Shown here piece after piece: positions 4,651 through 41,053 of a DNA stretch of 64,000 nucleotides. The DNA is taken from contig CAXHZO010000007.1 in NCBI GenBank assembly GCA_964022095.1, forward strand, positions 1 to 64,000, read 5' to 3'. The notes under the pieces were generated by a model. The model did not search any database. It was not told the DNA's origin and saw only the letters and a program-made list of their open reading frames with translations. The position numbers were made by a program, and so were the translations under genes. This stretch comes from an uncultured Arcobacteraceae bacterium (GTDB taxonomy: Bacteria; Campylobacterota; Campylobacteria; Campylobacterales; Arcobacteraceae). Each line of letters opens with the position of its first letter. Within the stretch, counting starts at the first letter, position 1.

Positions 4651-4679
4651 AAGAAAATCAATATTTAATTGGTTTTCTT
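4651..4679 (+). terminator. Stem-loop after first hydrogenase operon
   Basis: AAGAAAATCAAT-ATTTA-ATTGGTTTTCTT inverted repeat just downstream of the hydE stop. Confidence 0.55.
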
Positions 4680-4691
4680 GACTTTTGTCAA
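4678..4691 (+). promoter_or_regulatory. Crp/Fnr-family-like box upstream of second hydrogenase operon
   Basis: Perfect-arm palindrome TTGAC-TTTT-GTCAA (FNR consensus TTGAT-N4-ATCAA); centred at -41.5 if TAGAAT 4714-4719 is the -10. Confidence 0.65.
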
Positions 4692-4729
4692 TAAAGCTTT
4701 ACCTTTTTTATAATAGAATACCTTATAGT

Positions 4730-4749
4730 AAATGAATAATCATTCATAA
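4730..4749 (+). promoter_or_regulatory. Palindromic operator ATGAAT-N4-ATTCAT in hydA2 leader
   Basis: Perfect 6-bp arms; similar site at 36255-36274 before hypB. Confidence 0.55.
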
Positions 4750-4766
4750 TTTGTAAAGGACTCATC

Positions 4767-7657: not shown

Positions 7658-7667
7658 GGAGTTTGTT

Positions 7668-8330: not shown

Positions 8331-8899
8331 TGAATATTCTAATTTTAGGAATAGGAAATGTCCTATTCCAAGATGAAGGTATTGGAGTTCATTTTATTCA
8401 TTATTTAGATGAAAAATATGAGTTTAAATCTAATAATTCAACTGTAAATATAATAGATGGTGGAACACTTGCACAAAGATTAATTCCCCAAATTGTTCAA
8501 TATAATGAAGTGATAGTTGTAGATTGTATTGCTGCTGATAATTCAAAACCTGGTGATGTATTTTTCTTTGATTATAAAAAAGCACCAAGTTATATTGACT
8601 GGCAAGGAAGTGCTCATGAAGTAGAGATGCTTCAAACACTAAATATGATTGATATGCAGTATGATTTACCAAATACAAACGTTTTAGGAGTTATTCCAAA
8701 AAGATTATACACAGAAGATACAACTTTTGATTTAAGCAATGAAATTATTGATGCTGTAAAAGTTATGGAAAATGTTGTGCTAAAACATCTAGAAAGTTTA
8801 AAAATAGAAGTAATTACTAAAAATTCTGATACTACAATTCAAGAAATTTCACTAGTTTCGTTTAAAAGAGATATTGTTAATTACTTTGATATTAACTAA
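8330..8899 (+). CDS. hydD: Hydrogenase maturation endopeptidase, copy 2
   Basis: MNILILGIGNVLFQDEGIG, IDGGT, SAHEVEM; ATG overlaps the hydC stop (TAATG). Confidence 0.94.
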   Translation: MNILILGIGNVLFQDEGIGVHFIHYLDEKYEFKSNNSTVNIIDGGTLAQRLIPQIVQYNEVIVVDCIAADNSKPGDVFFFDYKKAPSYIDWQGSAHEVEMLQTLNMIDMQYDLPNTNVLGVIPKRLYTEDTTFDLSNEIIDAVKVMENVVLKHLESLKIEVITKNSDTTIQEISLVSFKRDIVNYFDIN

Positions 8900-8951
8900 T
8901 TAAGATAGGTTTTAATATACTATTTAATTAGTTATAACAAGGGATTTATAT

Positions 8952-10844: not shown

Positions 10845-10848
10845 TTAA

Positions 10849-23205: not shown

Positions 23206-23727
23206 ATGAAAAATATAATTAAAACTATTCTTTTATCTTTTGTTGTAGTTTTATTTACTGCATGTTCTCCAAAATATCCAGATTTACCAACTACAAAAAA
23301 TGTTGATCTAAATAAATATTTAGGTACTTGGTATGAAATAGCAAGATATGAGCATTTCTTTGAGAAAGGCTGTAAAAATGTTACAGCTAATTATTCTTTA
23401 AGAGAAGATGGAGACTTAAATGTTATAAATAAATGTACAAAGATTGAAACTAATAAAGAAACAAAAGCAACAGGAGTTGCTTACTCTACAAATGATGTAA
23501 ATACAAAACTAAAAGTTAGTTTTTTTAGACCATTTTGGGGTGATTATTGGATATTAATGTTAGCAGATGACTACTCTTACGCAGTTGTAGGAACACCTTC
23601 AAGAGAGTATTTATGGATATTATCAAGAACTTCAAAGATTAGTGAAGATTTAAAAAATCTGATTTTAACTAAGCTTCCAGATTTAGGATTTCCAACTAAT
23701 AAACTTATTTGGACAATACAAGATTAA
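23206..23727 (+). CDS. blc: Outer-membrane lipoprotein lipocalin Blc
   Basis: Lipobox FTAC, YLGTWYEIARY, LKVSFFRPFWGDYWIL, YLWILSR. Confidence 0.93.
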   Translation: MKNIIKTILLSFVVVLFTACSPKYPDLPTTKNVDLNKYLGTWYEIARYEHFFEKGCKNVTANYSLREDGDLNVINKCTKIETNKETKATGVAYSTNDVNTKLKVSFFRPFWGDYWILMLADDYSYAVVGTPSREYLWILSRTSKISEDLKNLILTKLPDLGFPTNKLIWTIQD

Positions 23728-23841
23728 AAATAAAATCAAAAAGCTACGTTATTGTTACGTTTGTTTTATATAGTGTTATTAACGGTTTCATCTGAAGGAG
23801 AGAGCTGATGATTCATTTGATTAAGAAGTTTAAATAGCAAG

Positions 23842-24477
23842 TTAGAGATTTTTCAAAATCTCTAGTTGTTCCTCTTTTGAATAGTTAAATCTAAATTCAC
23901 ACTCTTTTAAATAAAAGAAAAAATACTCATAATCAATTCCCTTATACTTTTTCAAAGATTCCTCTAAATATTTCCAAAAATCATATAGCTTTGTTTTATA
24001 AGACTCTTTAGAGTAAATTTTATGCCAGTTTAAATACTTCTCATACTCACTACCACTTAGGGATTCTCTTCTATGTTTTAAGTTTGGCATTAATAGTGTG
24101 TATACTTTACTGTTACTGTAAAAGCCTATTATATTTATAGCTTCATAAAGTGATTTTATTTTTTTTAGTTTTTGTTTTGAGGTGAAGTAATAGTACTCTT
24201 CATAATCACTATAATCTTTTGGTAATGAGTTATACTCATCTTCTAAGAACTGAGGAAGTTTTCCTCTTAATTCATCATATCTGTTTTTAACAGTTTTATA
24301 ATTTAGTTTAAGTTCATTTGATAACTCTAGAGCTGTTTTATTTTTTATAAAACCATTTATGATTTGTTCATTTCTTTTTAGTTTTTTTAAGGAATACTTT
24401 TTTGCACATTTTTTGCATTTTATATATTCATTTGCTAAAGTATAAAAAGTTTGATTTTTACAGTTTTTACATATCAT
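23842..24477 (-). CDS. IS1595-family transposase-derived protein (Zn ribbon + HTH, degenerate DDE); possible domesticated regulator
   Basis: CKNC..CKKC Zn ribbon, TALELSNELKLNYKTV HTH, SKVYT, FW..L...KYKGI....F..YLKECEFRFN IS1595/IS1016 C-terminal motif; catalytic segments altered or absent. Confidence 0.75.
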   Translation of the reverse strand: MICKNCKNQTFYTLANEYIKCKKCAKKYSLKKLKRNEQIINGFIKNKTALELSNELKLNYKTVKNRYDELRGKLPQFLEDEYNSLPKDYSDYEEYYYFTSKQKLKKIKSLYEAINIIGFYSNSKVYTLLMPNLKHRRESLSGSEYEKYLNWHKIYSKESYKTKLYDFWKYLEESLKKYKGIDYEYFFFYLKECEFRFNYSKEEQLEILKNL

Positions 24478-24505
24478 AGTGCTATTTTATCATGATTTAT
24501 ATACT

Positions 24506-24527
24506 TTTTGTTCTAAAAGTACATAAG
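24506..24527. promoter_or_regulatory. 22-bp quasi-palindromic operator, copy 1 (divergent promoter of the transposase-like gene and Ni-import operon)
   Basis: TTTTGTTC-TAAAA-GTACATAA-G; 21/22 identical to 36184-36205; 14 nt upstream of TATAAT (24542-24547). Confidence 0.75.
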
Positions 24528-24604
24528 TAAAGGATAAAATTTATAATGGTATAACATCATCATCAATATAATCTAAATTATTTTATTACAAAAGGTCAAA
24601 AATT

Positions 24605-25327
24605 ATGAAAAAACTTTTATTATTAACATCATCTGCTATTATTACTTTAAATGCTCATTTTTTAACATTTATTCCAAGTAGCGATAATATTACAAATAAA
24701 AACCAATCAAAAATACAATTTGATATATCATTTATTCATCCCTTTGAACAAACTGGTATGACACTAGAAAAACCTGAAGTTTTTGTAAATAGTAAAGAAA
24801 ATAAATTATCTTTAACTCAAGCAAAAAAATTTGATCATAAGGCATGGAAAAGTACTTATGAAGTTAAAAGACCAGGAGTTAATAAGTTCTTTGTTCAGCC
24901 ACAACCATATTTTGAACCAGCAGAAGAGAAGTTTATCTCTCATGTTCCAAAAGTAATTATTAGCTCTTTTGGATTAGAAGATGGTTGGGATGAGCCTGTT
25001 GGCTTAAAGTATGAGATAATTCCTATGACAAAACCATTTGCTCTTTATAGTGGAAATTTATTTCAAGGTAAGGTATTACATGATGGCAAACCAGCAGCTA
25101 ATACAGAAGTTGAAGTAGAGCTATATAATGAATTTGGACTAAAAGCACCAAGTGATGCTCATATTACACAAGTTGTTAATACTGATGATAATGGTGTGTT
25201 TTCATTTACAATGAATCATAAAGGATGGTGGGGCTTTGCTGCACTTATAGAAGAGGGTGAATTAGAACATAAAGGAAAAAAATATCCTGTAGAAAATGGT
25301 GCATTAATGTGGATAAAGGCTTATTAG
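24605..25327 (+). CDS. DUF4198 family periplasmic component (NikK/CbiK-like) of a Ni/Co ECF transporter
   Basis: Signal peptide then AHF, FIHPFEQ, PYFEPAEEKFISH, GWDEPVGL, GWWGFAAL; first gene of the cbiMQO operon. Confidence 0.85.
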   Translation: MKKLLLLTSSAIITLNAHFLTFIPSSDNITNKNQSKIQFDISFIHPFEQTGMTLEKPEVFVNSKENKLSLTQAKKFDHKAWKSTYEVKRPGVNKFFVQPQPYFEPAEEKFISHVPKVIISSFGLEDGWDEPVGLKYEIIPMTKPFALYSGNLFQGKVLHDGKPAANTEVEVELYNEFGLKAPSDAHITQVVNTDDNGVFSFTMNHKGWWGFAALIEEGELEHKGKKYPVENGALMWIKAY

Positions 25328-25328
25328 T

Positions 25329-25922
25329 ATGCATATATCAGATGGTGTTTTAAGTTTAGAAACAACAGTAATTGTTTCAGTTGTTTCTTTACTGGCTTTA
25401 ATAAAAGCAATAAAAGATTTAAAAAATGAAGATATATCACTAACAGCAGTAGCTAGTGCTATGTTCTTTATAGCTTCTTTTATACATATACCTTTTGGCT
25501 TAACACAAATACATTTGATTTTATTAGGTGTTATAGGAATACTTATTTCATGGAGTAGTTTTGTGGCTATTTTTGTAGCCTTATTGCTTCAAGCACTTTT
25601 ATTAGGTTATGGAGGAATTACTAGCTTAGGGGTGAATTTATTTATTATGGCAACACCTGCACTTATAGTGTATTATTTATATAACATGCAAATCGTAAAA
25701 AAAATAAATGAAAAGATAAAGTTCTTTTTAGTTGGATTTTTGGGAACTTTTTTTGCTACGCTTTTCCTAACTTTAATATTATATTTTTCAAAAGAAGAAT
25801 ATAATTACGCTGCATATACAATATTTTCTGTAAATATTGTAACAATGATTATAGAAGGTTTAGTAAGTATGTTTTTATTACTATTTATTAAAAAAGTCTA
25901 TCCAAAAATATTGAAGGATTAA
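25329..25922 (+). CDS. cbiM: Ni/Co ECF transporter substrate-capture component CbiM/NikM
   Basis: N-terminal MHISDG metal-binding motif, FIHIP, LQALLLGYGGITSLGVN. Confidence 0.93.
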   Translation: MHISDGVLSLETTVIVSVVSLLALIKAIKDLKNEDISLTAVASAMFFIASFIHIPFGLTQIHLILLGVIGILISWSSFVAIFVALLLQALLLGYGGITSLGVNLFIMATPALIVYYLYNMQIVKKINEKIKFFLVGFLGTFFATLFLTLILYFSKEEYNYAAYTIFSVNIVTMIIEGLVSMFLLLFIKKVYPKILKD

Positions 25923-25923
25923 T

Positions 25924-26334
25924 TTGCGATTATTAGTAATATTACTTTTTATAATTACATTTTCAAGTGCACATAAAATCAATCTTTTTGTAACAACTCT
26001 TGATAATAAATTAGAAATATATTCATATTTTGCAAATGGTTCACCATGCAAAAACTGTAGTTTTACTATAAAAAATAAAGAAAAAATTGTATTTCAAAAT
26101 ACTCTTAATGATAAAGGAATATATTTATATACTCCAAAACATGAAAAAATAGAAATTACAATTGACGCAAATAGCGGACATATTACAAAACAAACGGTTG
26201 TTGTTGATAATATAAAACATGAAGATATCAAAAAACAACAAAATAAAGAAGAAAAAGATAAGTATTTTAAAATACTTATTGGATTAATTTTGATATTTAT
26301 TCTTTTCTTTTTGTTAAAAAGATTTAAAAAATGA
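25924..26334 (+). CDS. CbiL/NikL-like auxiliary component of the Ni/Co ECF transporter
   Basis: Signal peptide then AHKINLF, YFANG, SGH, C-terminal TM; lies between cbiM and cbiQ. Confidence 0.75.
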   Translation: MRLLVILLFIITFSSAHKINLFVTTLDNKLEIYSYFANGSPCKNCSFTIKNKEKIVFQNTLNDKGIYLYTPKHEKIEITIDANSGHITKQTVVVDNIKHEDIKKQQNKEEKDKYFKILIGLILIFILFFLLKRFKK

Positions 26335-26978
26335 GTAAAGAGTCAATAAATTTAATAAGTGCTTTTCTTTATTCTTTAGTCGTAGCTTTTTCCCCTTTAG
26401 AGTATCTGTTTTTATTACCAGTTTTAATTGCATTAATTATTGAAAAACAACATATAAAAGCTATTTTACAAAAACTATTTTTTCTGAATTTTTTTATATT
26501 AGTTTTAGTTTTGTTTGTGTTGTTTCAAAATAAGCAAGAAGCTATAGATTTACTATTTAGAACAAACTTAATTTTATTTTTTAATCTTGCAATATTTTAT
26601 AGCTCTAAAGGTTATGATATTGTAAGAGGATTAGATAGCTTAAATTTTCCATCAAAAGTAGTTAGTGTATTTTATTTCACATTATCTCTTATAGATTACT
26701 TGCTAATGGATTTAAAAAAAACAAAACAAAGTCTAAAAGCTAGAAGTTTTAGTGCAAATACATCACTATTTACATACCAAACTTATGGTAATATTTTTGC
26801 AATGATATTTATAAAAGCACTTAAAAAATCAGAAGATATGAAATATAGTATGAGTGCTAGGGGATTTGAAGATAAAATTTATTTTTTAAATTCAAACAAA
26901 ATTGAAGTGTCTCAAAAACTATTATTTATATCAATTTGTCTAATAATTTTAAAGGTAACCTATGAGTTGTTCAGTTAA
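26331..26978 (+). CDS. cbiQ: ECF transmembrane T component CbiQ/NikQ
   Basis: Hydrophobic, with LKARSF and MSARGF coupling motifs. Confidence 0.88.
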   Translation: MSKESINLISAFLYSLVVAFSPLEYLFLLPVLIALIIEKQHIKAILQKLFFLNFFILVLVLFVLFQNKQEAIDLLFRTNLILFFNLAIFYSSKGYDIVRGLDSLNFPSKVVSVFYFTLSLIDYLLMDLKKTKQSLKARSFSANTSLFTYQTYGNIFAMIFIKALKKSEDMKYSMSARGFEDKIYFLNSNKIEVSQKLLFISICLIILKVTYELFS

Positions 26979-27612
26979 TCTACGATCAATATCTTATAAA
27001 AATGATAAGAAAGAGCTATTTAAAAATATAAATTTAAATTTAGGTCATGAAGAAAAAATAGCGATTATTGGTTCAAATGGTAGTGGTAAAAGTACATTAC
27101 TTAAAATAATTGCAGGATTGATTGAACCTACAGATGGCTATTTAGAATTATTTCATAATAAAATCAATACTTTAAAAGAGTATAAAAAGTATAGAAATGA
27201 AATAGCTTATTTACCTCAAGATGTAACAAATCATTTTTTATGCCCAACTGTTATGGAAGATGTAATATTTACACTAAGAGCAAAAGGTGAGTCAAAAGAA
27301 ATTGCTTTACAAAAAGCAGATGAGATTTTAAATGATCTTGAAATATCTCATTTAAAAAATAGGGTTATATTTGATTTAAGTGGAGGTGAACAAAAAATTG
27401 TTGCACTTGCAGGATTATTAATTTTAAAGCCAAAGATATTATTACTTGACGAACCTACAAATGCTTTAGATGAAGAATCTGAAAGAAAAATTGTTAAGAT
27501 ATTAAACTCAATAAAAAAATCCATGATTATTGTTTCACATCATAAAAGTTTTATTGAAAGATTAACTCCTACAATTTGCAAGCTACATAATAGTAGTTTA
27601 GAAAACTTATAA
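26962..27612 (+). CDS. cbiO: ECF ATPase CbiO/NikO
   Basis: GSNGSGKST, LSGGEQK, LLLDEPT. Confidence 0.9.
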   Translation: MSCSVNLRSISYKNDKKELFKNINLNLGHEEKIAIIGSNGSGKSTLLKIIAGLIEPTDGYLELFHNKINTLKEYKKYRNEIAYLPQDVTNHFLCPTVMEDVIFTLRAKGESKEIALQKADEILNDLEISHLKNRVIFDLSGGEQKIVALAGLLILKPKILLLDEPTNALDEESERKIVKILNSIKKSMIIVSHHKSFIERLTPTICKLHNSSLENL

Positions 27613-27626: not shown

Positions 27627-28862
27627 TTGAATAAAATTTATGATGTAATAGTTATTGGTGGTGGACCTGCTGGAATATTAGCTGCTATTAGTGCAGCTAG
27701 TGAGAACAAATCTGTACTACTTTTAGAGAAACTTTCCAAAATAGCTGCAAAATTAAAAGCAACTGGTGGTGGAAAGTGTAATCTTACAAATACTTTATCA
27801 ACTGATGAATTTATGGGTAAGTTTGGTAAAAATGGAAGATTTATGAGTGATGCATTAAATCAATTTAATGCAGATGATTTAAGAAAATTTTTTTCTAGTA
27901 TAGGAGTTGAAACAATATCAAGAGATGGCTTTAGAGTATTCCCTTTAAATCATAGTTCAAGTATTATTTTAACTGCATTAGATGATGAGATACAAAGACT
28001 TGGAATAGATGTTGAATGTTCAGTAAAGATTGATAAAATACAAAAAGATGAAGAGATATTTACTTTATATTCAAATGATAAGACATATACTTCAAAAAAT
28101 ATCATAATAGCAACTGGTGGTTTAGGTTATCCTGTTCTTGGAGCAACTGGTGATGGATACTCATATGCAAAAGAGTTTGGTCACAAAGTAACTGATACTC
28201 ATCCTGCTATGATGCCTCTTTTTACAAAAGAAAAGAACTTTGCAGCTTGTAAAGCAGATACTATTGCAAAAGCAATACTAAAAGTTGATATCCCAAAATA
28301 TAAGAAGTTAAAATTAACAGGGGATTTAATCTTTACAAAAGATGGTCTTAGAGGTCCTGTTATATTAGACTTCGCAAGAGAGATAACACCAATTCTTGCA
28401 AAATACAATGAAGTTCCACTTTTAATTAGTTTTTTAAAAGGTATGAATGAAGATCAAATATTCTCACATATTAAAAAACAAATTGCAAACAAACCTGAAA
28501 GTACTATTTTAGAAAATTTAGAAACCTTACTAGCAACTAGTGTTGCAACACAAATTTGTAATATCAGTGAAGTTGATACATCTTTAAGATTTAAACAAAT
28601 TGAAGGTCAAAAAAGAGAGAAACTTGTAAAAACATTAGCTTGGACACCATTTACAATCACTGGACATGATGGTTTTAAACATGCCATGATTACAAGAGGT
28701 GGAGTTGATTTAAAACAGATTGATCCAAAAACTATGCAAAGTAAACTAACAAATGGTTTATATTTCTGTGGAGAAGTTGTAAATATCGATGGCCCTTGTG
28801 GTGGATACAATCTTCAATGGTCTTTTTCAAGTGGGTTTTTAGCAGGTAAATTAAAAAGTTAA
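27627..28862 (+). CDS. HI0933/YhiN/BaiN family FAD-dependent oxidoreductase
   Basis: IGGGPAG, ATGGGKCNLTN, ATGGLGYP, TRGGV, GPCGGYNLQ. Confidence 0.93.
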   Translation: MNKIYDVIVIGGGPAGILAAISAASENKSVLLLEKLSKIAAKLKATGGGKCNLTNTLSTDEFMGKFGKNGRFMSDALNQFNADDLRKFFSSIGVETISRDGFRVFPLNHSSSIILTALDDEIQRLGIDVECSVKIDKIQKDEEIFTLYSNDKTYTSKNIIIATGGLGYPVLGATGDGYSYAKEFGHKVTDTHPAMMPLFTKEKNFAACKADTIAKAILKVDIPKYKKLKLTGDLIFTKDGLRGPVILDFAREITPILAKYNEVPLLISFLKGMNEDQIFSHIKKQIANKPESTILENLETLLATSVATQICNISEVDTSLRFKQIEGQKREKLVKTLAWTPFTITGHDGFKHAMITRGGVDLKQIDPKTMQSKLTNGLYFCGEVVNIDGPCGGYNLQWSFSSGFLAGKLKS

Positions 28863-28935: not shown

Positions 28936-30792
28936 GTGAATAATTTTAACGACAAGATAAATCTAATATGGCAAATAGCAGAAAGTTTAAGAGGGGTTTA
29001 TAAACCTGAAAAATATGGTGATGTGATATTACCAATATGCGTGATTAAGAGATTTGATGAAATAATAAGTGAAAAAAAAGATGATATAGAAAAAGCTTAC
29101 AATTTATATAAAGATATTCCACAAGAGTCACAAGAAGAGCTTATAAAAACTGAACTTGATGGTTTAGACTTTTATAATATCTCAGTTTTTTCCTTTGATA
29201 ATTTATGTGATGACCAAGATAACCTAAAAGAAAATTTTATAAACTATTTACAAGGGTTTTCTTCAAATATCAAAGATATTATAGCTCACTTTGATTTCAA
29301 CAAAGAGATAGACAAATTAGCAAAAAACAATCAACTTTATCATGTAATAGATGAGTTTAACAACGTAGATTTACACCCAAATAGAGTAGATAATCAAACT
29401 ATGGGTTATATTTTTGAAGAGTTAATTAGAAAGTTTAAAGAAAATGCAGAAGCAGGAGACCACTACACTCCAAGAGAAGTAATCGAGCTTTGTATGAGAA
29501 TGCTTTTTATGGGAAAAGAAAAACAAATCAAAACAAAAGGTAAAGTTATCTCAATAGCTGATTTTTGTTGTGGTACTGGTGGTATGTTATCAGTTGGTCA
29601 CAAAGATATACTAAAACAAAACCCAAGTGCAAAAGTAGAGCTATACGGACAAGAGATAAATGACGAATCTTACGCTATTTGTAAAGCTGATATGCTTATC
29701 AAAGGACAAGATACAAATAACATAGCCTTTGGAAATACACTTACAGATGATGGGCATAAAGGTAAAAACTATAGATTTCTTATCTCAAACCCACCTTTTG
29801 GAGTACAGTGGAAAAAAGAACAAGCTTATGTAAAAGCAGAACATGAATCTTATGGTTTTGAAGGAAGATTTGGAGCAGGAGTACCAAGAGTTAGTGATGG
29901 TTCACTTCTTTTCTTACAAAATATGATAAATAAGATGTATAAAGATGAAGAGGGAAGCCGTCTTGCTATCATCTTCAATGGCTCACCACTTTTCACAGGT
30001 GATGCAGGTAGTGGTGAGAGTGAAATAAGACGATGGATTATTGAAAAAGATATGTTAGAAGGAATTATATCTTTACCAACTGACCTTTTTTACAATACGG
30101 GGATTTCTACATATATTTGGGTTCTTAGCACATCAAAAAGTGATGAGAGAAAAGGCAAAATACAGCTTGTAAATGGAAGTGAGTTTTCAAAATCTATGAG
30201 AAAATCACTTGGAAGTAAAAGAAAGTTTATAAGTGATGAACAAATAGAAGAGTTAGAAGCATACTATAAAGAGTTTGATAACTATAAAGATTCTAAATAC
30301 TCTAAAGTATTTGATAATAGTGATTTTGGTTTTACAAAAGTTACAGTGGAGCGACCAAAGAATCTAGCTGAAATACTTGAAGATGAAAAAGACAAAGATA
30401 AGTTTTATACAATTGCTCCAACGGTAAGAGAAGTTGTAGAAGAAAAGTTATTGGAAATAGAAGAAAAAAGATTAGAGTTTAAATCTAAAAAAGAATTTCT
30501 TTCTTTTCTTGGGGTGACTTTAACTGCTTCAAGACAAAATGTACTAATATCAAAAGATAGTGAATCAATACCACTTAAAAAAGATATACAAGAGTACTAC
30601 AAAGAAGAGGTAAAACCTCATTTAGTTTCATCATGGCTTGATGAAAGTACTTTTGATAACATAGGTTATGAAATACCTTTTACTAGACACTTTTATGAGT
30701 ATAAAAAGCTAGATAGTTTTGAAAATATCATGGTAGATATAAAAGAGCTAGAATCTAGTATAAATGATAATTTAAAAGAGTTGTTAGCCTAA
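28936..30792 (+). CDS. hsdM: Type I R-M system methyltransferase subunit
   Basis: AGDHYTPREV, DFCCGTGGML (motif I), SNPPFG (motif IV), FYNTGISTY. Confidence 0.96.
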   Translation: MNNFNDKINLIWQIAESLRGVYKPEKYGDVILPICVIKRFDEIISEKKDDIEKAYNLYKDIPQESQEELIKTELDGLDFYNISVFSFDNLCDDQDNLKENFINYLQGFSSNIKDIIAHFDFNKEIDKLAKNNQLYHVIDEFNNVDLHPNRVDNQTMGYIFEELIRKFKENAEAGDHYTPREVIELCMRMLFMGKEKQIKTKGKVISIADFCCGTGGMLSVGHKDILKQNPSAKVELYGQEINDESYAICKADMLIKGQDTNNIAFGNTLTDDGHKGKNYRFLISNPPFGVQWKKEQAYVKAEHESYGFEGRFGAGVPRVSDGSLLFLQNMINKMYKDEEGSRLAIIFNGSPLFTGDAGSGESEIRRWIIEKDMLEGIISLPTDLFYNTGISTYIWVLSTSKSDERKGKIQLVNGSEFSKSMRKSLGSKRKFISDEQIEELEAYYKEFDNYKDSKYSKVFDNSDFGFTKVTVERPKNLAEILEDEKDKDKFYTIAPTVREVVEEKLLEIEEKRLEFKSKKEFLSFLGVTLTASRQNVLISKDSESIPLKKDIQEYYKEEVKPHLVSSWLDESTFDNIGYEIPFTRHFYEYKKLDSFENIMVDIKELESSINDNLKELLA

Positions 30793-32156
30793 TGCAATAT
30801 AGAGTAAGAAAACAAAGTGAGCTTAAGCCAAGTGGTGTTGAGTGGCTTGGAGATATTCCAAATACATGGAGTTTTTCTAGACTAAGTTATAATATAAAAT
30901 TATTAAATGGTTATGCATTCAGTTCTACAATACATCACGGTGATGGCATTAATATTATCAAAATGAGTAACTTAAAGGATGGTAATATAATCTTTAAGGA
31001 TAATAATCAAAAGTTTAATATTACTGATAAGTTGAGTAAATTTCTTTTAAAGGAAAATGATATTTTAATTGGATTATCTGGTAGTATTGAAAACTTTGCA
31101 GTAGTAAAAAACAACCACTTACCAGCATATTTAAATCAGAGAGTATGTTCTTTGAGGGCGACAAATAATATATTAAATCAATTTATATGTTATATTATTC
31201 TTAGTAAATATTTTAAAGAACAGATTCAAGTTAATATAACAGGTTCTACAATTGTTAACTTAAGTACTGAATCATTAGAACGTGTAAAAGTTTTAGTTCC
31301 CAATATTTCTAAACAAGAGAAAATAATATTCTTCTTGAATAAAAAAACACAAATATTCGATGACTCTATCTCAAAAAAAGAGGAGCTTATCACTAAACTT
31401 GAAAAGGCAAAACAATCTTTGATAAGTGAAGTAGTGACAGGAAAACTAAAAGTTATCGAAAAAAATGAAAAACTACAAACTATAAAAAGAGAAAAAGAAG
31501 AACTAAAACCAAGTAAGGTTGAATGGCTTGGGTATATTCCAAAAGATTGGCAAGTTAAAAAATTAGGATATGTCTTCAAATTTAAAAATGGTGTAAATGC
31601 TGATTCCTCAAGCTATGGAAAAGGTTTAAAGTTTATTAATGTAAAAGAGACTATTAATACTGATTTTATTTTAGAAAAAGATATAGAAGGTTCAGTTAAT
31701 GTTCCTGAATCTATTATAAAAGAAAATTTACTCCAAAAAGGGGATGTACTTTTTAATAGAACATCTGAAACAGCTGAGGAAATAGCTTTAAGTACGGTTT
31801 ATTATGATGATGCAAAAGCTTTATTTGGTGGCTTTGTTATAAGAGGACGACAAATTACAAATGATTTAGATTTGGATTTTAAAAGATACTGTTTTCAATC
31901 ATATGAAATAAGAAAACAAATAATATCATTTGCTAGTGGAAGTATTAGAAAAAATATCGCACAAACAAATTTAAAAGATGTATATCTTACTTTTCCAAAT
32001 ATAGATGAACAAAAACAAATATCAAAATACCTTGACGAAAAAATAAAAACATTTGATAACACAATCGAAAAAACAAAACAAAGCATAACAAAACTAAAAC
32101 AAGCCAAAGAATCACTTATCAGTGAAGCAGTGACAGGAAAAATTGAGATTTTATAA
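30792..32156 (+). CDS. hsdS: Type I R-M system specificity subunit
   Basis: Two TRDs each preceded by KPSxVEWLGxIP and followed by SLISExVTGK conserved repeats. Confidence 0.95.
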   Translation: MQYRVRKQSELKPSGVEWLGDIPNTWSFSRLSYNIKLLNGYAFSSTIHHGDGINIIKMSNLKDGNIIFKDNNQKFNITDKLSKFLLKENDILIGLSGSIENFAVVKNNHLPAYLNQRVCSLRATNNILNQFICYIILSKYFKEQIQVNITGSTIVNLSTESLERVKVLVPNISKQEKIIFFLNKKTQIFDDSISKKEELITKLEKAKQSLISEVVTGKLKVIEKNEKLQTIKREKEELKPSKVEWLGYIPKDWQVKKLGYVFKFKNGVNADSSSYGKGLKFINVKETINTDFILEKDIEGSVNVPESIIKENLLQKGDVLFNRTSETAEEIALSTVYYDDAKALFGGFVIRGRQITNDLDLDFKRYCFQSYEIRKQIISFASGSIRKNIAQTNLKDVYLTFPNIDEQKQISKYLDEKIKTFDNTIEKTKQSITKLKQAKESLISEAVTGKIEIL

Positions 32157-32165
32157 AGGAAAAAG

Positions 32166-33194
32166 ATGAGCGAATTAATAGAAAACAAAAACTTACTAAA
32201 TGAATTAAAACTTTTAATCAGTGATACAAAACAGAAAGTAACTATTAGTGTAAACTCATCTTTAACACTTCTTTATTGGAATATTGGTAAAAAAATTCAA
32301 GATGATATTATCAAAACTGATAGGGCAAATTATGGAGAGCAAATTGTGCAGACAGTGAGTGCACAATTGGTCAAAGAGTTTGGTAAAGGTTATGCCAAAA
32401 GAAATATTTTGAATATGATTAGGTTTTATAAGGTCTTTTCTGATGAAAGAAAAGTGCATTCACTGAGTACACAATTGTCTTGGACTCATTTTAAAACATT
32501 GATTTATATAGAAGATGAACTAAAAAGAACTTTTTATATAGAAATGACAAAGCTTGACAAGTGGAGTACAAGAACTTTACAAGATAGAATAGACTCACAA
32601 CTTTATGAAAGAACAGCTTTATCTAAAAAAAGTGATGAGCTTATATCAACTGAACTTAAAAACCTAAAACAAGGTGAAGTAAAAACAAATATGCTTTTAA
32701 AAGACCCCTATGTTTTAGACTTTTTAGAGTTAAAAGATAGATATTTAGAAAAAGATTTAGAAGATGCTATTTTAAGAGATATAGAGAGTTTTATATTGGA
32801 GCTTGGACATGGTTTTACTTTTGTGGCAAGACAAAAAAGAGTTCAAATAGGCGATGATGATTTTTATATTGATTTACTTTTTTATAATAGAAAATTAAAA
32901 AGATTAATAGCTATTGATTTAAAACTAGGAAGATTTAAAGCTGAGTATAAAGGTCAAATGGAATTATACTTAAAATACTTAGAAAAATATGAGATGGAAG
33001 AGGGTGAACAAAGCCCTATGGGAATCATACTATGCTCTTCAAAAAATGAAGAGCAAATAGAGTTACTTGAACTTGAAAAAAGCTCAATTCATGTGGCAAA
33101 ATACCTTACGATACTTCCACCAAAAGATGAGTTTGAAAAAAGACTTCATCAAGCTATACAAAAAGCAAAAGAAAAATATCAAATCAAGGAATAG
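32166..33194 (+). CDS. YhcG / DUF1016 PD-(D/E)xK nuclease-like protein
   Basis: LYWNIGK, LSWTHF, WSTRTL, KDPYVLDFL, ELGHGF, YIDLLFY, IDLKLG. Confidence 0.93.
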   Translation: MSELIENKNLLNELKLLISDTKQKVTISVNSSLTLLYWNIGKKIQDDIIKTDRANYGEQIVQTVSAQLVKEFGKGYAKRNILNMIRFYKVFSDERKVHSLSTQLSWTHFKTLIYIEDELKRTFYIEMTKLDKWSTRTLQDRIDSQLYERTALSKKSDELISTELKNLKQGEVKTNMLLKDPYVLDFLELKDRYLEKDLEDAILRDIESFILELGHGFTFVARQKRVQIGDDDFYIDLLFYNRKLKRLIAIDLKLGRFKAEYKGQMELYLKYLEKYEMEEGEQSPMGIILCSSKNEEQIELLELEKSSIHVAKYLTILPPKDEFEKRLHQAIQKAKEKYQIKE

Positions 33195-33197
33195 TTT

Positions 33198-36183: not shown

Positions 36184-36205
36184 TTTTGTTCTAAAAATAC
36201 ATAAG
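36184..36205. promoter_or_regulatory. 22-bp quasi-palindromic operator, copy 2 (hypB promoter)
   Basis: TTTTGTTCTAAAAATACATAAG; 13 nt upstream of TATACT (36219-36224). Confidence 0.75.
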
Positions 36206-36254
36206 AAATTAAAAAAATTATACTTCCTTTAGACTTTTTGAGTTAAACTTTATA

Positions 36255-36274
36255 AAATGAATAGAGATTCACAA
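36255..36274 (+). promoter_or_regulatory. ATGAAT-N4-ATTCAC operator in hypB leader
   Basis: 16/20 identical to 4730-4749; three of the four mismatches fall in the spacer. Confidence 0.55.
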
Positions 36275-36303: not shown

Positions 36304-37092
36304 ATGTGTAAAGATTGCGGTTGTAGTATAACAGACCATCACCACCACGATCATGACCATAGTCATGACCATGCACACTCACATGATAGTGCTTCACATC
36401 AAGCAGCTCATGAAACACTTCATCATAACCCTCAATTAAATGATGCAAAGACAGTTTCAGTAATCAAAAAAATTCTTGATAAAAATGACCATGAAGCTTC
36501 TCACAACAGAGCTCATTTTGATAACCACAAAGTTTTAGGAATAAACTTAATGTCAAGTCCAGGTAGTGGTAAGACTACTTTACTAGAGCATATGGCTGAT
36601 TTAGTTGATTTTAAATATGGTGTTGTTGAAGGTGATTTAGAAACAAATAGAGATGCTGATAGATTAATTGCAAAAGATATTAAAGCAGTTCAAATTCAAA
36701 CTGGTAGTGCATGTCATTTAGATGCGTTTATGGTCCATAAAGGTTTACATGATATGCCTTTAGATGATTTAGATGTATGTTTTGTAGAAAATGTAGGAAA
36801 TTTAGTTTGTCCCGCTTCTTATGATGTAGGAACGCATTTAAATATAGTACTTGTAAGTGTACCAGAGGGTGAAGATAAGATTGCTAAATATCCAGTTATG
36901 TTTAGAGCAGCAGATTTAATACTTATTACAAAAACTGATTTACTTCCATACTTTGAATATGATATAGAAAAAGAAAAAGCAGAAGCTAGAAAACTAAAAC
37001 CAAATGTAGATATCTTAGAAGTAAGTACAAAAGATAAAGATTCAATGCAAGCAGTTGTTGATTGGATTAATTTTAAAAGAAAGATGAGATAG
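36304..37092 (+). CDS. hypB: Hydrogenase nickel-incorporation GTPase HypB
   Basis: MCKDCGC, His-rich linker, SSPGSGKTT, ACHLDA, ENVGNLVCP, TKTDL. Confidence 0.98.
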   Translation: MCKDCGCSITDHHHHDHDHSHDHAHSHDSASHQAAHETLHHNPQLNDAKTVSVIKKILDKNDHEASHNRAHFDNHKVLGINLMSSPGSGKTTLLEHMADLVDFKYGVVEGDLETNRDADRLIAKDIKAVQIQTGSACHLDAFMVHKGLHDMPLDDLDVCFVENVGNLVCPASYDVGTHLNIVLVSVPEGEDKIAKYPVMFRAADLILITKTDLLPYFEYDIEKEKAEARKLKPNVDILEVSTKDKDSMQAVVDWINFKRKMR

Positions 37093-37096
37093 TAAT

Positions 37097-37378
37097 ATGT
37101 GTTTATCAATACCTTCAAAAATTAAAAGTATAGATACGCAAATGAATACTTGTGTAGTAGATACTATGGGAGTTGAAAGAAGTGCTAGTTTAGATTTAAT
37201 AGATAAAGAAGTACAAATAGGGGATTATGTATTAATTCATATTGGTTTTGCTATGAATAAGATTGATGAAGAGGATGCCTTAGAGTCACTAAAAGTCTAT
37301 CAAGAGATAATTGATAAGATGGAAGAAGAAGATCGCTTAGCAGCAATTGAAGAATCTGATAATTGTCCCAATAGATAA
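37097..37378 (+). CDS. hypC: Hydrogenase assembly chaperone HypC
   Basis: MCLSIP, GDYVLIHIGFAM. Confidence 0.97.
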   Translation: MCLSIPSKIKSIDTQMNTCVVDTMGVERSASLDLIDKEVQIGDYVLIHIGFAMNKIDEEDALESLKVYQEIIDKMEEEDRLAAIEESDNCPNR

Positions 37379-37389
37379 GTAGAAATATT

Positions 37390-38514
37390 ATGGAAAAAGA
37401 ACTACAACTAAAAGATTTGTATGATGGTTTTAGAGATCCTAAAACTATTAAAGCATATAAACAAATAATAGATAAAGATTTAGAAAATTATGATGGAATC
37501 ATAAATATTATGGAAGTATGTGGTGGTCATACTCATACTATTATGAAATATGGTATCCCTCAATTGTTAAATAAAAAAATAAACTTTATTCATGGACCAG
37601 GATGTCCAGTTTGTGTTATGCCAAAAGATAGAATTGATAGTGCATACGAATTAAGCTTACAAGAAGATGTGATACTTGTAACACTTGGGGATATGATTAA
37701 AGTACCTGGTAGTAAAGGAAGCTTACAAAAAGCAAGAAGCCAAGGTGCTGATGTAAGGTTTGTTTACTCACCTATGGATTGTATTAAAATAGCCCAAGAA
37801 AATCCATCTAAAACTATAGTATTTTTTGCAATAGGATTTGAAACAACTACACCAATGACTTGTTCTTTATTAGAGCAAGTAATAAAACAAGAAATTCCAA
37901 ATATTTTATTTCATATAAATCATATTACAGTTCCAGAAGTAATGAGAGTATTAGTTCAAAGTGATGATTGTAAAATAGATTCTTTTTTAGGCCCTTCTCA
38001 CGTAAGTGTTATAAGTGGAAGTAAGATATATGAAGAGTTCCCTAAAGATTACAATAAGCCAGTTGTAGTAGCAGGGTTTGAGCCAGTTGATGTTATGCAA
38101 GCTATATCTATGACAGTTAAGCAGTTTATTGAAAATAGAAGTGATTTAGAAGTAGAGTACAAAAGGCTTGTATCATATGAGGGTAATTTAAAAGCTCAAG
38201 AAAAAATAGAAAAGTTCTTTAAAAAAGTACCTTTTAAATTTAGAGGTGTAGGTGAAGTTGAAAATAGTGGTTATGAACTTAAAGATGAATATAGTAAATA
38301 TAACGCAAAAATAGTTTATAAAGATGTATTACCTACAAAAGAAGTAAAAGAAAACAAAGCATGTAAATGTCCAGAGATCTTAAAAGGGGTTGCAAAACCT
38401 ACAGATTGTAAGATATTTGGGACTGTATGTACTCCTACAAATCCAATTGGATCATGTATGGTAAGTAGTGAAGGTGCTTGTAGTGCTTATTATAAATATG
38501 GAAACTTAATATAG
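37390..38514 (+). CDS. hypD: Hydrogenase maturation protein HypD
   Basis: MEVCGGHTH, GPGCPVC, GFETT, PIGSCMVSSEGAC. Confidence 0.98.
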   Translation: MEKELQLKDLYDGFRDPKTIKAYKQIIDKDLENYDGIINIMEVCGGHTHTIMKYGIPQLLNKKINFIHGPGCPVCVMPKDRIDSAYELSLQEDVILVTLGDMIKVPGSKGSLQKARSQGADVRFVYSPMDCIKIAQENPSKTIVFFAIGFETTTPMTCSLLEQVIKQEIPNILFHINHITVPEVMRVLVQSDDCKIDSFLGPSHVSVISGSKIYEEFPKDYNKPVVVAGFEPVDVMQAISMTVKQFIENRSDLEVEYKRLVSYEGNLKAQEKIEKFFKKVPFKFRGVGEVENSGYELKDEYSKYNAKIVYKDVLPTKEVKENKACKCPEILKGVAKPTDCKIFGTVCTPTNPIGSCMVSSEGACSAYYKYGNLI

Positions 38515-38593
38515 TATTTAAAAATAAGTACTTTTAATATATATTTTATATGACCAATGTTAGAATACTAAAAGTACTAAAAAATAAATACTA
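38512..38593. repeat. Segmented inverted repeat / ARTACTAA array upstream of the ATPase gene
   Basis: TAGTATTTA..AGTACTTTTA on the left mirrors TAAAAGTACT..TAAATACTA on the right. Confidence 0.55.
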
Positions 38594-38602
38594 AGGTATA
38601 AA

Positions 38603-39700
38603 ATGAAATCGCCATTTCCATATGAGACAATAGCTCAGAGTTCAACCTTCTATGGCAGAGATAAAGAACTAGAATCTTTAGGTAAATATATCAAGACATC
38701 AAACAATATATTAATTCATTCAAAAAGAAGAATGGGTAAAAGTACACTAATACAAGAGTTGTTTAGAAGAGTATCTACTGATTATTCTTGTATATACTGT
38801 GATATATTTGATATTACTTCAAAAGAGGATTTTGCGAAGTTATTATTAAAATCAATATCTAATATAGAACAAAATGATTTTAAAGAGATGTTTAGAAAGT
38901 TTAGCTTACTTTTTAAAAGAGTAAGAGTAGAGCCATCATTTGATCCAAATAGTTCAAAGTTCTCTTTAAAGCCAGTTGTGTCAACTCTTAGTTTTGATGA
39001 GATGATGGAAGATTTCTTTATAGCCTTAGAGCAAATATCTAGTGAAAGAAAAGTAATATTTGCAATAGATGAGTTTCAGCAAATATCACTTATTGGAGAT
39101 ATTAAAATAGATGCACTTTTAAGAAAGTATATGCAAAATACTCAAAATGTATCTTGGGTATTTTTAGGTTCAAAAAGACATCTATTAACTTCACTATTTG
39201 AATATAAAGCACCACTATATGAAATGGCAACTCATTTTGAATTACAACCTTTAGAAATAATGGAAGTATATGAGTATGTGTCAAAGCATTTAAATATCAA
39301 TTATGAGTTAGTTAAGTATATATATGAAAGAAGTGATAGTGAAACAAAATTATTACAAAATATATGTCATATCTTGTGGTTAGAACAAAAAGATAAAGAG
39401 ATAAAAAAAGAGTTCATTGATGAGGTTATACAACAAATCATAAATTCTAAAGAGTCAAGCTATAGACTAATATACGATATGTTAAATAACAATCAAAAAA
39501 TAGCACTTAAAATTCTTGCTAAGTATAAAAAGAAAATATACACACAAGAGGTATTAGATGAGTTTAATATCAAAAAACAAACACTACAATCATCACTAAA
39601 AGCTTTATTTGATAGAGAGATTGTAGATAAAAATAGTGAAGACATATATATACCAGATAGAACTTTAGAGTTATGGTTAGAAAATAGATTTAATGATTAA
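38603..39700 (+). CDS. P-loop ATPase (archaeal-type ATPase_2/AAA family) with probable C-terminal winged helix
   Basis: FYGRDKE, Walker A SKRRMGKST, Walker B FAIDEFQ, FLGSK; C-terminal TLQSSLKALFDREIV. Confidence 0.85.
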   Translation: MKSPFPYETIAQSSTFYGRDKELESLGKYIKTSNNILIHSKRRMGKSTLIQELFRRVSTDYSCIYCDIFDITSKEDFAKLLLKSISNIEQNDFKEMFRKFSLLFKRVRVEPSFDPNSSKFSLKPVVSTLSFDEMMEDFFIALEQISSERKVIFAIDEFQQISLIGDIKIDALLRKYMQNTQNVSWVFLGSKRHLLTSLFEYKAPLYEMATHFELQPLEIMEVYEYVSKHLNINYELVKYIYERSDSETKLLQNICHILWLEQKDKEIKKEFIDEVIQQIINSKESSYRLIYDMLNNNQKIALKILAKYKKKIYTQEVLDEFNIKKQTLQSSLKALFDREIVDKNSEDIYIPDRTLELWLENRFND

Positions 39701-39715
39701 AAAGGAAAGATATAA

Positions 39716-40711
39716 ATGAAGACTATTACATTAGCACATGGTAACGGAGGTGCAGAAAATAATGAACTTATTAGTAAAGTATTTTATAATGCCTTTAAAA
39801 ATGAGACCTTAGAAAAAAGTGAAGATGCAGCTGTTATTCACAATGGTGAACTTGCTTTTAGTACAGATTCATTTACTGTTAGCCCACTTTTTTTTAATGG
39901 GGCTGATATTGGAAAACTTGCAGTTTGTGGAACTTGTAATGACTTAACTATGATGGGAGCAAAACCTAAATACCTAACTTGTAGTGTAATTATAGAAGAG
40001 GGCTTTGAAATAGCACAATTAGAGAAAATAGTTGACTCTATGAAAACTGAGCTAGCAAAAAATGAAGCAATAGTTGTAAGTGGAGATACAAAGGTAGTTC
40101 CAAAAGGCGCAGTTGATAAAATCTTTATAAATACAACTGGTGTTGGAGAGATTTTATACAAAGGTATTAGCTCAAATAATATCACAACTAATGATGTGAT
40201 ATTAGTAAGTAGAGATATCGGAGCTCATGGTGCTACAATATTTACTGCACGTGAAGGAATGGATATAAATTCAAATCTAAAAAGTGATTGTAACTCTTTA
40301 TATCCACAAGTAAAAGCTTTAATTGATTCAGGTATTAAAATAACTGCGCTAAGAGACGCTACAAGAGGTGGAGTTAGTGCAGTTTTGAATGAGTGGGCAA
40401 AGCAATCTGATATTTGTATTGAAGTAGAAGAAGAAAGTATTCCTGTAAGTGATGAGGTAAAAGGAATTTGTGAGATGTTAGGTTTTGAAGCTACAAATCT
40501 TGCAAATGAAGGAACTTTTGTACTTGCAGTTCCTAAAGATGATGCATCAAAAGCAATAGAAGTATTACATACTTTTAATGAAGCAAAAAATGCATGTATA
40601 ATAGGAAAAGTTACAAGTCAATATGATAAAAAAGTAGTATTAAACTCTTCATGGGGTACAAAAAGATTCTTAGATACACCAACTGGTGAATTACTTCCAA
40701 GGATATGTTAG
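39716..40711 (+). CDS. hypE: Hydrogenase maturation protein HypE
   Basis: LAHGNGG, STDSFTVSP, GDTKVV, RDATRGG, C-terminal PRIC. Confidence 0.98.
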   Translation: MKTITLAHGNGGAENNELISKVFYNAFKNETLEKSEDAAVIHNGELAFSTDSFTVSPLFFNGADIGKLAVCGTCNDLTMMGAKPKYLTCSVIIEEGFEIAQLEKIVDSMKTELAKNEAIVVSGDTKVVPKGAVDKIFINTTGVGEILYKGISSNNITTNDVILVSRDIGAHGATIFTAREGMDINSNLKSDCNSLYPQVKALIDSGIKITALRDATRGGVSAVLNEWAKQSDICIEVEEESIPVSDEVKGICEMLGFEATNLANEGTFVLAVPKDDASKAIEVLHTFNEAKNACIIGKVTSQYDKKVVLNSSWGTKRFLDTPTGELLPRIC

Positions 40712-41053
40712 ATGCACGAATACTCAATAGTTCAATCTCTTTTAGAGTCTTGTGAAGAACATGCAAAATCAAATGAAGCTTCAAAAGTTACAAAAGTAGT
40801 AGTTAAAATTGGAGTTTTAAGTGGAGTAGAACCAGATTTATTAAAAACTGCATTTGATACTTTCAAAGAACAAACTGTTTGTCATAATGCAATCTTTGAT
40901 ATGAATATACAGAAGGTTCAAATACTCTGTCATGATTGTCAAACTACTTCAATACTAGATAAAAATGAATTTTCATGTCCATCTTGTCAAAGTGTAAATG
41001 TAGAAGTAAAAGACGGTGAAGATATGTATCTTATGAGTTTGGAAATGGAATAA
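40712..41053 (+). CDS. hypA: Hydrogenase nickel chaperone HypA
   Basis: MHEYS, CHDC..CPSC. Confidence 0.97.
   Translation: MHEYSIVQSLLESCEEHAKSNEASKVTKVVVKIGVLSGVEPDLLKTAFDTFKEQTVCHNAIFDMNIQKVQILCHDCQTTSILDKNEFSCPSCQSVNVEVKDGEDMYLMSLEME

Follow-up and report, generated by a model that had tools for sequence, protein, structure and literature searches.

In a 64,000-nucleotide stretch of DNA from an uncultured Arcobacteraceae bacterium (GenBank assembly GCA_964022095.1, contig CAXHZO010000007.1, positions 1 to 64,000 of the forward strand; referred to below as the window), we have examined a small gene, P0001, whose 211-residue product is likely, in our estimate, to descend from an IS1595/ISXO2-like DDE transposase and to have been domesticated, with loss of catalysis, into a sequence-specific transcription factor. 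Comparative genomics supports this regulator reading well, and from it we infer both the binding of the protein to DNA and its effect on transcription. The Zn ribbon and helix-turn-helix (HTH) of the protein would bind, probably as one unit, a conserved asymmetric element that we call Box 1, and through this element the protein would control its own gene, the divergently transcribed operon for a nickel/cobalt importer of the energy-coupling factor (ECF) type and the hypBCD-E-A operon for hydrogenase maturation. In other species, control through Box 1 might extend to NikA-like importers and to a NiFe hydrogenase operon. An earlier, sequence-only reading of the same DNA had proposed an exapted, immobile regulator that couples nickel uptake to hydrogenase maturation, and the computational tests described here lend support to that proposal.

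Relationship to the IS1595 transposases

The sequence-only reading had described a 211-residue open reading frame (ORF) with a CxxC..CxxC ribbon and the motifs YEEYYY, KLYDFW and KYKGI...LKECEFRFN, and the protein examined here agrees with that description exactly (MICKNC...CKKC, DYEEYYY, KLYDFW, KYKGI...YLKECEFRFN). Searched as a single sequence, it gives weak IS1595 matches that fall below the cut-offs of the models, one to PF12760 (E 0.085) and one, confined to the final 33 residues, to NF033547 (E 0.0072). Alignment A1 brings together 28 diverse homologues, of which 20 touch PF12760 (best E 5e-5) and 11 touch PF12762, in every case again below the cut-offs. From 1.84 billion representatives, the profile built from A1 collected 1339 proteins at E<=1e-3, of which 238 also pass E<=1e-10; the PF12762 cut-off is exceeded by 19 of 32 sampled profile matches (for example P0153, P0204 and P0231), and genuine PF12762 proteins are reached over their full length with E values of 1e-35 to 1e-13 (down to 7e-35).

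An alignment of the family with genuine IS1595 transposases (alignment A2) separates what has been kept from what has been lost. The domain order is the same in both, and the family retains the Zn ribbon and HTH, the opening strands of the RNase-H-like core and, with their FW...KYxG...YLKExEFRFN signature, the C-terminal helices; C3, C6, C21 and C24 of the ribbon are unchanged in all 28 members of A1. The catalytic segments are where the candidate and the transposases part. The first catalytic motif, ELDEsYFGG in the transposases, is YEEYYY in the candidate and takes the form YDEYIY among the more distant half of the family, with E at the D1 position of the candidate, D at this position in about half of the family, and an invariant E94. 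About 40 residues that hold the second catalytic Asp (D2) are deleted in every aligned member (A1 and A2), the Gly/Arg-rich loop of the transposases is replaced, and at the third catalytic position HiNGIEgFW has become KLYDFW here, with D, K, N or T across the family. The DDE/DDN triad is not intact in the candidate family, which upholds the earlier statement that the catalytic segments are lost. By these alignments, the candidate is a remote but demonstrable relative of the IS1595/ISXO2-like transposases (PF12760 plus PF12762; NF033547) whose catalytic triad is lost.

The AlphaFold model of the protein (predicted local distance difference test score, pLDDT, 84.9; predicted template modelling score 0.79) comprises a ribbon, three helices and a small strand-helix domain, and pLDDT exceeds 90 in helices 49-56 and 60-84. 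In VIA-align, residues 27-72 superpose on the HTH domains of the SETMAR, Mos1 and Tc3 transposases and of GerE (Z 6-7.2, root-mean-square deviation 1.6-3.9, 41-47 residues), the best match being the SETMAR DNA-binding domain bound to its terminal inverted repeat (Z 7.2), and over its whole body the protein resembles the ISCth4 transposase (Z 6.7) and the cores of retroviral integrases (Z 5.6-6.0); all of these matches lie below the caution line of Z 8 and agree with the alignment without being independent proof of it. Foldseek returned no match in the PDB at E<=1e-3. Because of this empty search, and because the VIA-align Z values reach 7.2 at most, the RNase-H-like relic is identified by sequence alignment and not by fold. 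A homodimer prediction for two copies, made with A1, returned no verdict for or against a dimer (score 0.02). What the protein does possess is a DNA-binding domain, made up of a Zn ribbon with four invariant Cys residues and a confidently modelled HTH.

Copy number, distribution and gene neighbourhood

With such an ancestry, P0001 might be thought a decaying or active insertion sequence, that is, a transposase pseudogene or a hyp-targeting mobile element with no host function. Its homology to IS1595 transposases agrees with such an origin, as does the naming of relatives, which carry the annotation "transposase" in some databases, but we consider this explanation extremely improbable. The gene is single-copy in its own genome (2.57 Mb, 99.99% complete), and the only true IS1595 transposase of that genome is a different gene of 338 residues on contig 15 (PF12762 E 2.1e-37). 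No pair of inverted repeats flanks 23842-24477, in keeping with what had been said of the sequence before, and no convincing terminal repeats were seen around the true IS1595 copy. The D2 segment is missing from every aligned member, the gene has kept its position in at least nine families of the order, and Nei-Gojobori dN/dS values run from 0.034 to 0.135 in 17 pairs (one further pair was saturated); by this measure the homologues are under purifying selection, and their frames are intact. Single copy number, lack of terminal inverted repeats, synteny and purifying selection all set the candidate apart from the IS1595/ISXO2-like transposases.

Homologues were found in 109 of the 151 Arcobacteraceae genomes sampled, as one match in 92 of these and with a full-length second paralogue (~40% identity) in 11. 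Of 251 Campylobacterales genomes, 114 have a homologue (E<=1e-10), and very few of these have more than one. Nine families commonly carry the gene, and in the families that we number f8, f11, f16 and f25 it was not found within these 251 genomes. Named records with the gene include Arcobacter, Aliarcobacter, Halarcobacter, Malaciobacter, Poseidonibacter, Sulfurospirillum, Sulfurimonas, Sulfuricurvum, Sulfurovum and Nitratiruptor. Judged by its comparative record, the candidate is a fixed single-copy host gene in much of the Campylobacterales and not a mobile element, and the single-copy, syntenic orthologues under purifying selection (dN/dS 0.03-0.13) that the sequence-only reading had looked to do occur across the order. 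All 109 gene-positive Arcobacteraceae genomes have a NiFe hydrogenase, while 14 have a hydrogenase (4 of them by weak matches) and no gene, and 28 have neither, counts that are descriptive and do not amount to a test, the genomes being related and not independent.

The company that the gene keeps in these genomes is equally consistent. At 125 loci with a full-length protein (116 distinct proteins; a few genomes are in two collections), the nearest divergent labelled gene within 1.5 kb encodes HypB at 44, a putative nickel permease at 30, DUF4198 at 20, a His-rich protein of 130 residues at 3, HydS at 1 and something else at 24, and 3 loci are without upstream sequence, so that the neighbourhood is conserved in 98 of the 122 loci that can be judged (about 80%). 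In the window, the gene is divergent from the ECF importer across a 127-bp spacer (24478-24604), just as the earlier reading had it, and this ECF neighbour is common to only the three closest loci. HypB is the divergent upstream gene in 19 of the 30 best loci, and in 5 others of these 30 a 213-residue membrane protein with the motif HAFGPDH comes first and HypB follows. All 20 of the more distant loci (with 5-kb flanks) lie within Ni/hyp neighbourhoods, and the same holds for 80 named loci. Each second paralogue in genomes G003, G009, G024 and G047 has a DUF4198-CbiM-NikL-CbiQ-CbiO operon as its divergent neighbour.

Box 1, its promoters and the candidate signal

Within 200 nt upstream of the homologues there is a conserved asymmetric element of ~20 bp, Box 1 (CTTATRTAYTTTTRGRAC), which on the gene strand reads cwCTTATGTAyTTTTAGAACaaa in the clade of the window and TTCTTATATAyTTTTGGrACtaa in the other clade. 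The 22-mer TTTTGTTCTAAAAGTACATAAG in the divergent spacer (24506-24527) recurs ahead of hypB at 36184-36205 with 21/22 identity. No other match with up to 3 mismatches is found in the window (0 expected from 100 shuffles), and the same two sites are the only perfect matches to the 19-nt core in the 2.57-Mb genome. A position weight matrix (PWM) was made from 31 distinct homologue-upstream sites of Arcobacteraceae, with the hypB site outside the training set; in a scan of both strands of the whole genome its best match was the hypB site (30.0 bits), followed by the spacer site (29.5 bits), and the next matches, at 19.3 and 18.3 bits, are both intragenic. The sequence-only reading had reported a quasi-palindrome repeated before hypB. 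The repeat stands, as the 22-mer just described; the palindrome (arms at 24497-24508 and 24515-24526) is a local feature, and we do not regard it as the functional unit, since the left arm does not recur ahead of hypB and other genomes have not conserved it.

Other genomes bear out the recurrence of the box at nickel and hyp promoters that had first been noticed within the window. Scored against the consensus, Box 1 is present in 39 of 50 loci; with a threshold of 17 bits, 82 of 130 loci have it. Among the named loci with enough upstream sequence it occurs in 42 of 77, at positions between -20 and -116 relative to the start codon (mostly between -20 and -61) and in all but one case on the strand of the gene. 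Eight loci (L087, L090, L091, L094, L095, L096, L100 and L166) have a second Box 1 located 70-190 nt before hypB, and in these a transporter operon or other gene separates the regulator from hypB, an arrangement like that in the window; at L121 the second Box 1 precedes a permease gene. The variants of the box follow the protein clades, with G at position 8 in 22 of 27 sites versus A in 27 of 33, A at position 16 in 22 of 27 versus G in 29 of 33, and C-A/T versus T-T at positions 1-2, and the clade-specific variants are also seen within G024, a genome that carries both paralogues.

Unlinked copies of the box were sought by a pattern search of five complete genomes, from which 17 matches with at most 1 mismatch were retained. 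Four of these are the regulators' own sites and one lies before hypB (G024). Two precede unlinked DUF4198-CbiM operons (G098 and G013), and single matches precede a DUF4198-like gene (G098), the gene for an SBP_bac_5 (NikA-type) binding protein (G013, 29.5 bits), a hydrogenase small-subunit gene (G010, 30.3 bits), a Peripla_BP_2 gene and a porin-like gene. Directly upstream of the unlinked, box-marked DUF4198-CbiM operon of G098 there is an HTH gene of the ArsR/SmtB family (L193:1536-1895, minus strand), whose product may be a separate metal sensor on that operon. Genomes that lack the candidate were also inspected: 10 of the 14 with a hydrogenase and no gene were checked, and one hypB locus was truncated, leaving 9 usable. 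No Box 1 site of at least 12 bits lies anywhere in the retrieved hypB locus in 8 of these 9 (one of which had just 81 nt upstream of hypB). The ninth, a 370-contig assembly from a genus with the gene in 20 of 21 genomes, has a 28.8-bit Box 1, and its copy of the gene is probably missing through an assembly gap. Collectively, these comparisons show by computation that Box 1 accompanies the gene and marks nickel and hydrogenase promoters, in the manner of a cognate site.

The common order of elements upstream of hypB is Box 1, 22-23 nt, TTTAGAC...GTTAAACT, a TAAAAT -10-like box, the palindrome TGAATA-N3-ATTCA (Box 3) and a Shine-Dalgarno sequence. From Box 1 to the -35-like element of hypB the distance is fixed at 22-23 nt, whereas the -10-like box of the regulator lies at a variable distance of about 7 to 20 nt, and Box 1 therefore appears to be phased with the target promoter and not with that of the regulator. 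Going by spacing alone, Box 1, lying between about -60 and -80 relative to the hypB promoter, would occupy an activator-type position, and its overlap with the promoter of the regulator, or its location immediately before that promoter, suggests autoregulation; the promoter positions themselves are the product of consensus scans and are not above chance in this AT-rich DNA. In layout, though in nothing else, this recalls the divergent activators of the LysR type, in which the regulator is divergent from its target and the site lies near -65/-70 and abuts or overlaps the regulator's own promoter. The candidate has no sequence or fold relationship to these activators and no co-inducer domain, and its site is asymmetric and probably serves one Zn-ribbon-plus-HTH module. 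In many loci, a -10-like box (TGnTAAAAT / GATAAAAT) stands 6-9 nt before the regulator ATG (24478-24492 in the window), and the regulator mRNA may be leaderless or nearly so. A look for transcript data listed no RNA run that holds 23700-25400, and two runs hold just small shares (0.09 and 0.07). Two other roles for Box 1 were considered and dropped, as a sigma-54 promoter (there is no GG...TTGC pair at the right spacing) and as the -35 element of the candidate's promoter (the distance to the -10-like box varies, at 7-20 nt).

Box 3, which we take to resemble a Fur-family box, is probably the operator of a second, other regulator, and a second factor would be likely to act there. It has a further perfect copy before a hydrogenase small-subunit gene (Table 1); with 1 mismatch allowed, the window holds 7 matches against 7.9 expected, no more than chance would give. 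In many genomes a related palindrome (TGAATAAnTTATTCA) stands ahead of hypB or of the permease gene, and one of these genomes, G026, has no candidate gene. Such signs of other factors at these promoters bear on the possibility that Box 1, too, is the operator of another regulator, and that the candidate does some other job at the hyp locus, for example as a nucleic-acid-binding or metal-handling accessory of maturation, and merely shares the divergent promoter region. Besides Box 3, the ArsR-family gene upstream of the ECF operon in G098 and a nikR gene adjacent to the homologue in family f23 fit this explanation, and the pairing of the candidate with Box 1 is itself an inferred one. We nevertheless hold it to be quite improbable. 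The Zn ribbon and HTH are kept, with an invariant recognition-helix region; Box 1 is absent near hypB in 8 of 9 gene-less genomes; the box variant tracks the protein clade, also within two-paralogue genomes; and any alternative factor would need the same phyletic pattern.

In other bacteria, NikR controls nickel importers and the hyp and hydrogenase genes, and the predicted regulon of the candidate overlaps with this set. The two proteins are otherwise unlike each other, since the fold of the candidate is unrelated, its predicted operator is asymmetric and not palindromic, and it has no evident Ni site; it gives no Pfam match to ribbon-helix-helix or NikR_C models even at E<=10. The NikR_C domain was not found in the candidate's own 99.99% complete genome, nor in any of the 151 Arcobacteraceae genomes, and it occurs in 59 of the 251 Campylobacterales genomes. 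By family, NikR and the candidate are nearly complementary, NikR being absent from f1, f4, f6, f10, f13, f15, f17 and f24, in all of which the candidate is common. The exception is f23, with the candidate in 17 of 18 genomes and NikR in 14 of 18, where the gene next to the homologue encodes a true NikR (match 3.8e-27).

Despite the consistency of this picture, there are several observations that weigh against the regulator reading or against parts of it. In the f23 locus, which runs hypF-nikR-candidate-hypBCDEA, nikR lies tail-to-tail with the homologue. The candidate is therefore not merely a replacement for NikR, and nickel sensing is not to be assumed; the sequence-only reading was right that the region has no nikR, since none was found in the genome, but the argument drawn from this is weakened. 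No His or Cys is conserved outside the Zn ribbon in the 28 members of A1, and the conserved acidic residues E94, E192 and E194 are conserved in true transposases as well. Box 3 implies at least one more factor at hypB, which could be the real metal sensor. Some other gene is upstream in 24 of the 125 loci, and there is no Box 1 at threshold in 48 of 130, including all loci of the Sulfurospirillum type, although such misses may reflect a divergent box because the PWM was trained on Arcobacteraceae. Five of the 17 matches retained from the five complete genomes, which is to say 5 of the 13 unlinked matches at up to 1 mismatch, are intragenic, and 2-mismatch matches were discarded because a reversed-pattern control gives similar counts. 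Since related genomes are not independent, our counts overstate the support, and the limits given above for the fold matches and the promoter positions also belong here.

Because of the content of the regulon, nickel (or cobalt, for some paralogues) is the obvious candidate signal. It is a considerable possibility, if not one that we would call likely, that the candidate is the transcription factor of this same regulon and responds to H2, redox state or some other cue, or is a constitutive activator, while metal is sensed by NikR, by an ArsR-type protein or by the Box 3 factor. The protein has no conserved Ni-type ligands beyond its structural Zn ribbon, it coexists with nikR in one type of locus, and a high-scoring Box 1 precedes the hydrogenase structural operon of G010, all of which would suit a sensor of something other than nickel. 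Nickel is favoured instead by the box-marked targets, which are mostly Ni importers and hypB, and by NikR itself, with NikR_C in none of the 151 Arcobacteraceae genomes and a distribution that is near-complementary to that of the candidate in every family except f23.

Features of the locus, paralogues and significance

The features of the window and of the comparison loci are listed in Table 1. By its domain content, the operon divergent from P0001 (DUF4198, CbiM, NikL-like protein, CbiQ and CbiO) is a Ni/Co ECF importer. The segment 27613-36183, between this operon and hypB, looks like an insertion of ~8.6 kb that has left one copy of Box 1 on each side. In the close relative at locus L087, hypB comes directly after CbiO, without the flavoprotein and restriction-modification genes. 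Elsewhere in the window, an ORF of 2878 residues occupies 50288-58924 on the minus strand.

Table 1. Coordinates of the candidate gene, its predicted sites and targets, and other features; positions refer to the window unless a locus or genome is named
Feature	Position	Strand	Basis or remark
Candidate gene P0001, predicted catalytically dead IS1595-like protein, 211 aa	23842..24477	-	ORF and family profile
Zn-ribbon codons, aa 3-24	24406..24471	-	C3, C6, C21, C24 invariant
Helix-turn-helix codons, about aa 45-75	24253..24345	-	F43, T62, R71 invariant
RNase-H-like transposase core relic and C-terminal helices, aa 88-211	23845..24216	-	Alignment A2
Divergent spacer, candidate to ECF operon, 127 bp	24478..24604	.	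Between ORF and DUF4198 start 24605
Box 1 copy A, TACTTATGTACTTTTAGAACAAA on candidate's strand	24506..24529	-	PWM 29.5 bits
DUF4198	24605-25327	+	Pfam; heads predicted target operon 1 (24605..27612)
CbiM	25329-25922	+	Pfam; NCBIfam NF004909 above cut-off
NikL-like protein, 136 aa	25924-26334	+	NF058648 E 4e-17, below cut-off
CbiQ	26331-26978	+	Pfam
CbiO	26962-27612	+	Pfam
HI0933-like flavoprotein gene	27627-28862		Pfam
Type I restriction-modification system (hsdM, hsdS, YhcG-like nuclease, hsdR)	28936-36167		Pfam
Box 1 copy B, TTCTTATGTATTTTTAGAACAAA, ~97 nt upstream of hypB	36184..36207	-	PWM 30.0 bits
hypB promoter-like site TAGACT-17-TAAAAT	36230..36258	+	Consensus scan, 9/12; Box 1 centre at about -70
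Box 3, palindrome TGAATA-N3-ATTCA over predicted hypB start site	36258..36271	.	Conserved element
Box 3, second perfect copy	4733-4746		About 20 nt before hydrogenase small-subunit gene (4767)
Predicted target operon 2: hypB, hypC, hypD, AAA ATPase, hypE, hypA	36304..41053	+	Pfam; HypB TIGR00073 E 5.8e-83
AAA-ATPase gene, 365 aa, inserted between hypD and hypE	38603-39700		
Two NiFe hydrogenase clusters and hypF	12-13092		Pfam
213-aa membrane protein, HAFGPDH motif, between regulator and hypB	L090:5236-5874	-	30 loci in all
130-aa protein, His/Asp/Glu-rich stretch DHDHAEEDHACEHGHDDEEH, just upstream of hypB	L090:4756-5145	-	Also L016, L020, L027
True IS1595 transposase, 338 aa	G000 contig 15, 47939-48412 (L056:1372-2388)	-	PF12762

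Two of the proteins encoded beside the homologues in other genomes might themselves have a part in nickel handling. The 213-residue HAFGPDH protein, which has no Pfam or NCBIfam match at the thresholds used, is a candidate for a nickel permease whose family is either undescribed or highly divergent, and the His-rich protein of 130 residues, with no Pfam match at 1e-4, may be a nickel-binding accessory. At another locus, in Sulfurospirillum sp. SCADC (L124:6653-8529), a DarT-Macro (DarTG-like) pair lies directly downstream of the homologue.

A quick maximum-likelihood tree with SH-aLRT (Shimodaira-Hasegawa-like approximate likelihood ratio test) support divides the family into two well-supported halves. 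The first contains the Sulfurospirillum genes and the main Arcobacteraceae genes, including the candidate. The second contains an ECF-linked Arcobacteraceae clade, in which 10 of 10 genes adjoin DUF4198; a Sulfurimonas clade that adjoins another CbiM-type transporter, followed by CobQ/CobD genes; and the permease- or hypB-linked genes of Sulfurimonas, Sulfuricurvum and Nitratiruptor. At the Sulfurimonas sp. CS5 locus (L138:1-9000), the homologue is divergent from a cluster of DUF4198-like, CbiM and ABC transporter genes with an outer-membrane-like protein, CobQ/CobB-like and CobD/CbiB genes lie downstream of it on the same strand, and the Arcobacter-trained matrix detects no Box 1. This CobQ/CobD-linked paralogue may serve cobalt or cobalamin rather than nickel.

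One can go further and picture a new family of metalloregulators that arose from an IS1595 transposase and became fixed before the radiation of the Campylobacterales. The module that once bound inverted repeats would now read Box 1, itself perhaps an old transposon end; the relic of the DDE pocket (D/E93-E94) or the Cys-rich ribbon would be the sensor of Ni(II) or Co(II); the paralogues would be specific for hyp, for Ni-ECF or for cobalt/cobalamin genes, each with its own variant of the box; and the protein would be the master switch by which Arcobacter, Sulfurimonas, Sulfuricurvum, Sulfurovum and their NikR-less relatives govern nickel supply and the assembly of hydrogenase. We regard this extended scenario, taken as a whole, as unlikely.

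Our literature searches found no paper that describes the gene, although a mention in a supplementary gene table is possible. According to a 2019 review, functions have not been reported for the other Arcobacter regulators (PMC6682613), and for A. butzleri no obvious nickel uptake system was found, with no nickel regulator mentioned in the available portion of that account (PMC2147049).

The use of transposase-derived proteins as transcription factors is exemplified by SETMAR, FHY3/FAR1 and ZBED in eukaryotes and by the TnpB-derived TldR in bacteria; such domestication is well documented in eukaryotes and rarely so in bacteria. The principle would be the same in the candidate, with an end-binding DNA module kept, catalysis lost and the product fixed as a host regulator, but the candidate differs from these examples in its transposase superfamily and in its domain of life. 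We know of no regulator derived from a DDE insertion sequence that is fixed across a bacterial order, and our literature searches turned up none. If the regulator reading is true, the gene would provide a clean bacterial case of a DDE transposase that became a host transcription factor and was kept for a very long time.

For the organisms themselves, hydrogen oxidation is central to the ecology of both free-living and host-associated Campylobacterota, and to our knowledge the control of nickel supply and hydrogenase maturation has not been established in most of them. The annotation of relatives as "hypothetical protein" or "transposase" hides what is probably a regulator. The analysis described here offers a candidate for this role, together with a predicted operator of defined sequence and a regulon predicted in over 100 genomes, those of the emerging pathogen genus Aliarcobacter/Arcobacter among them.

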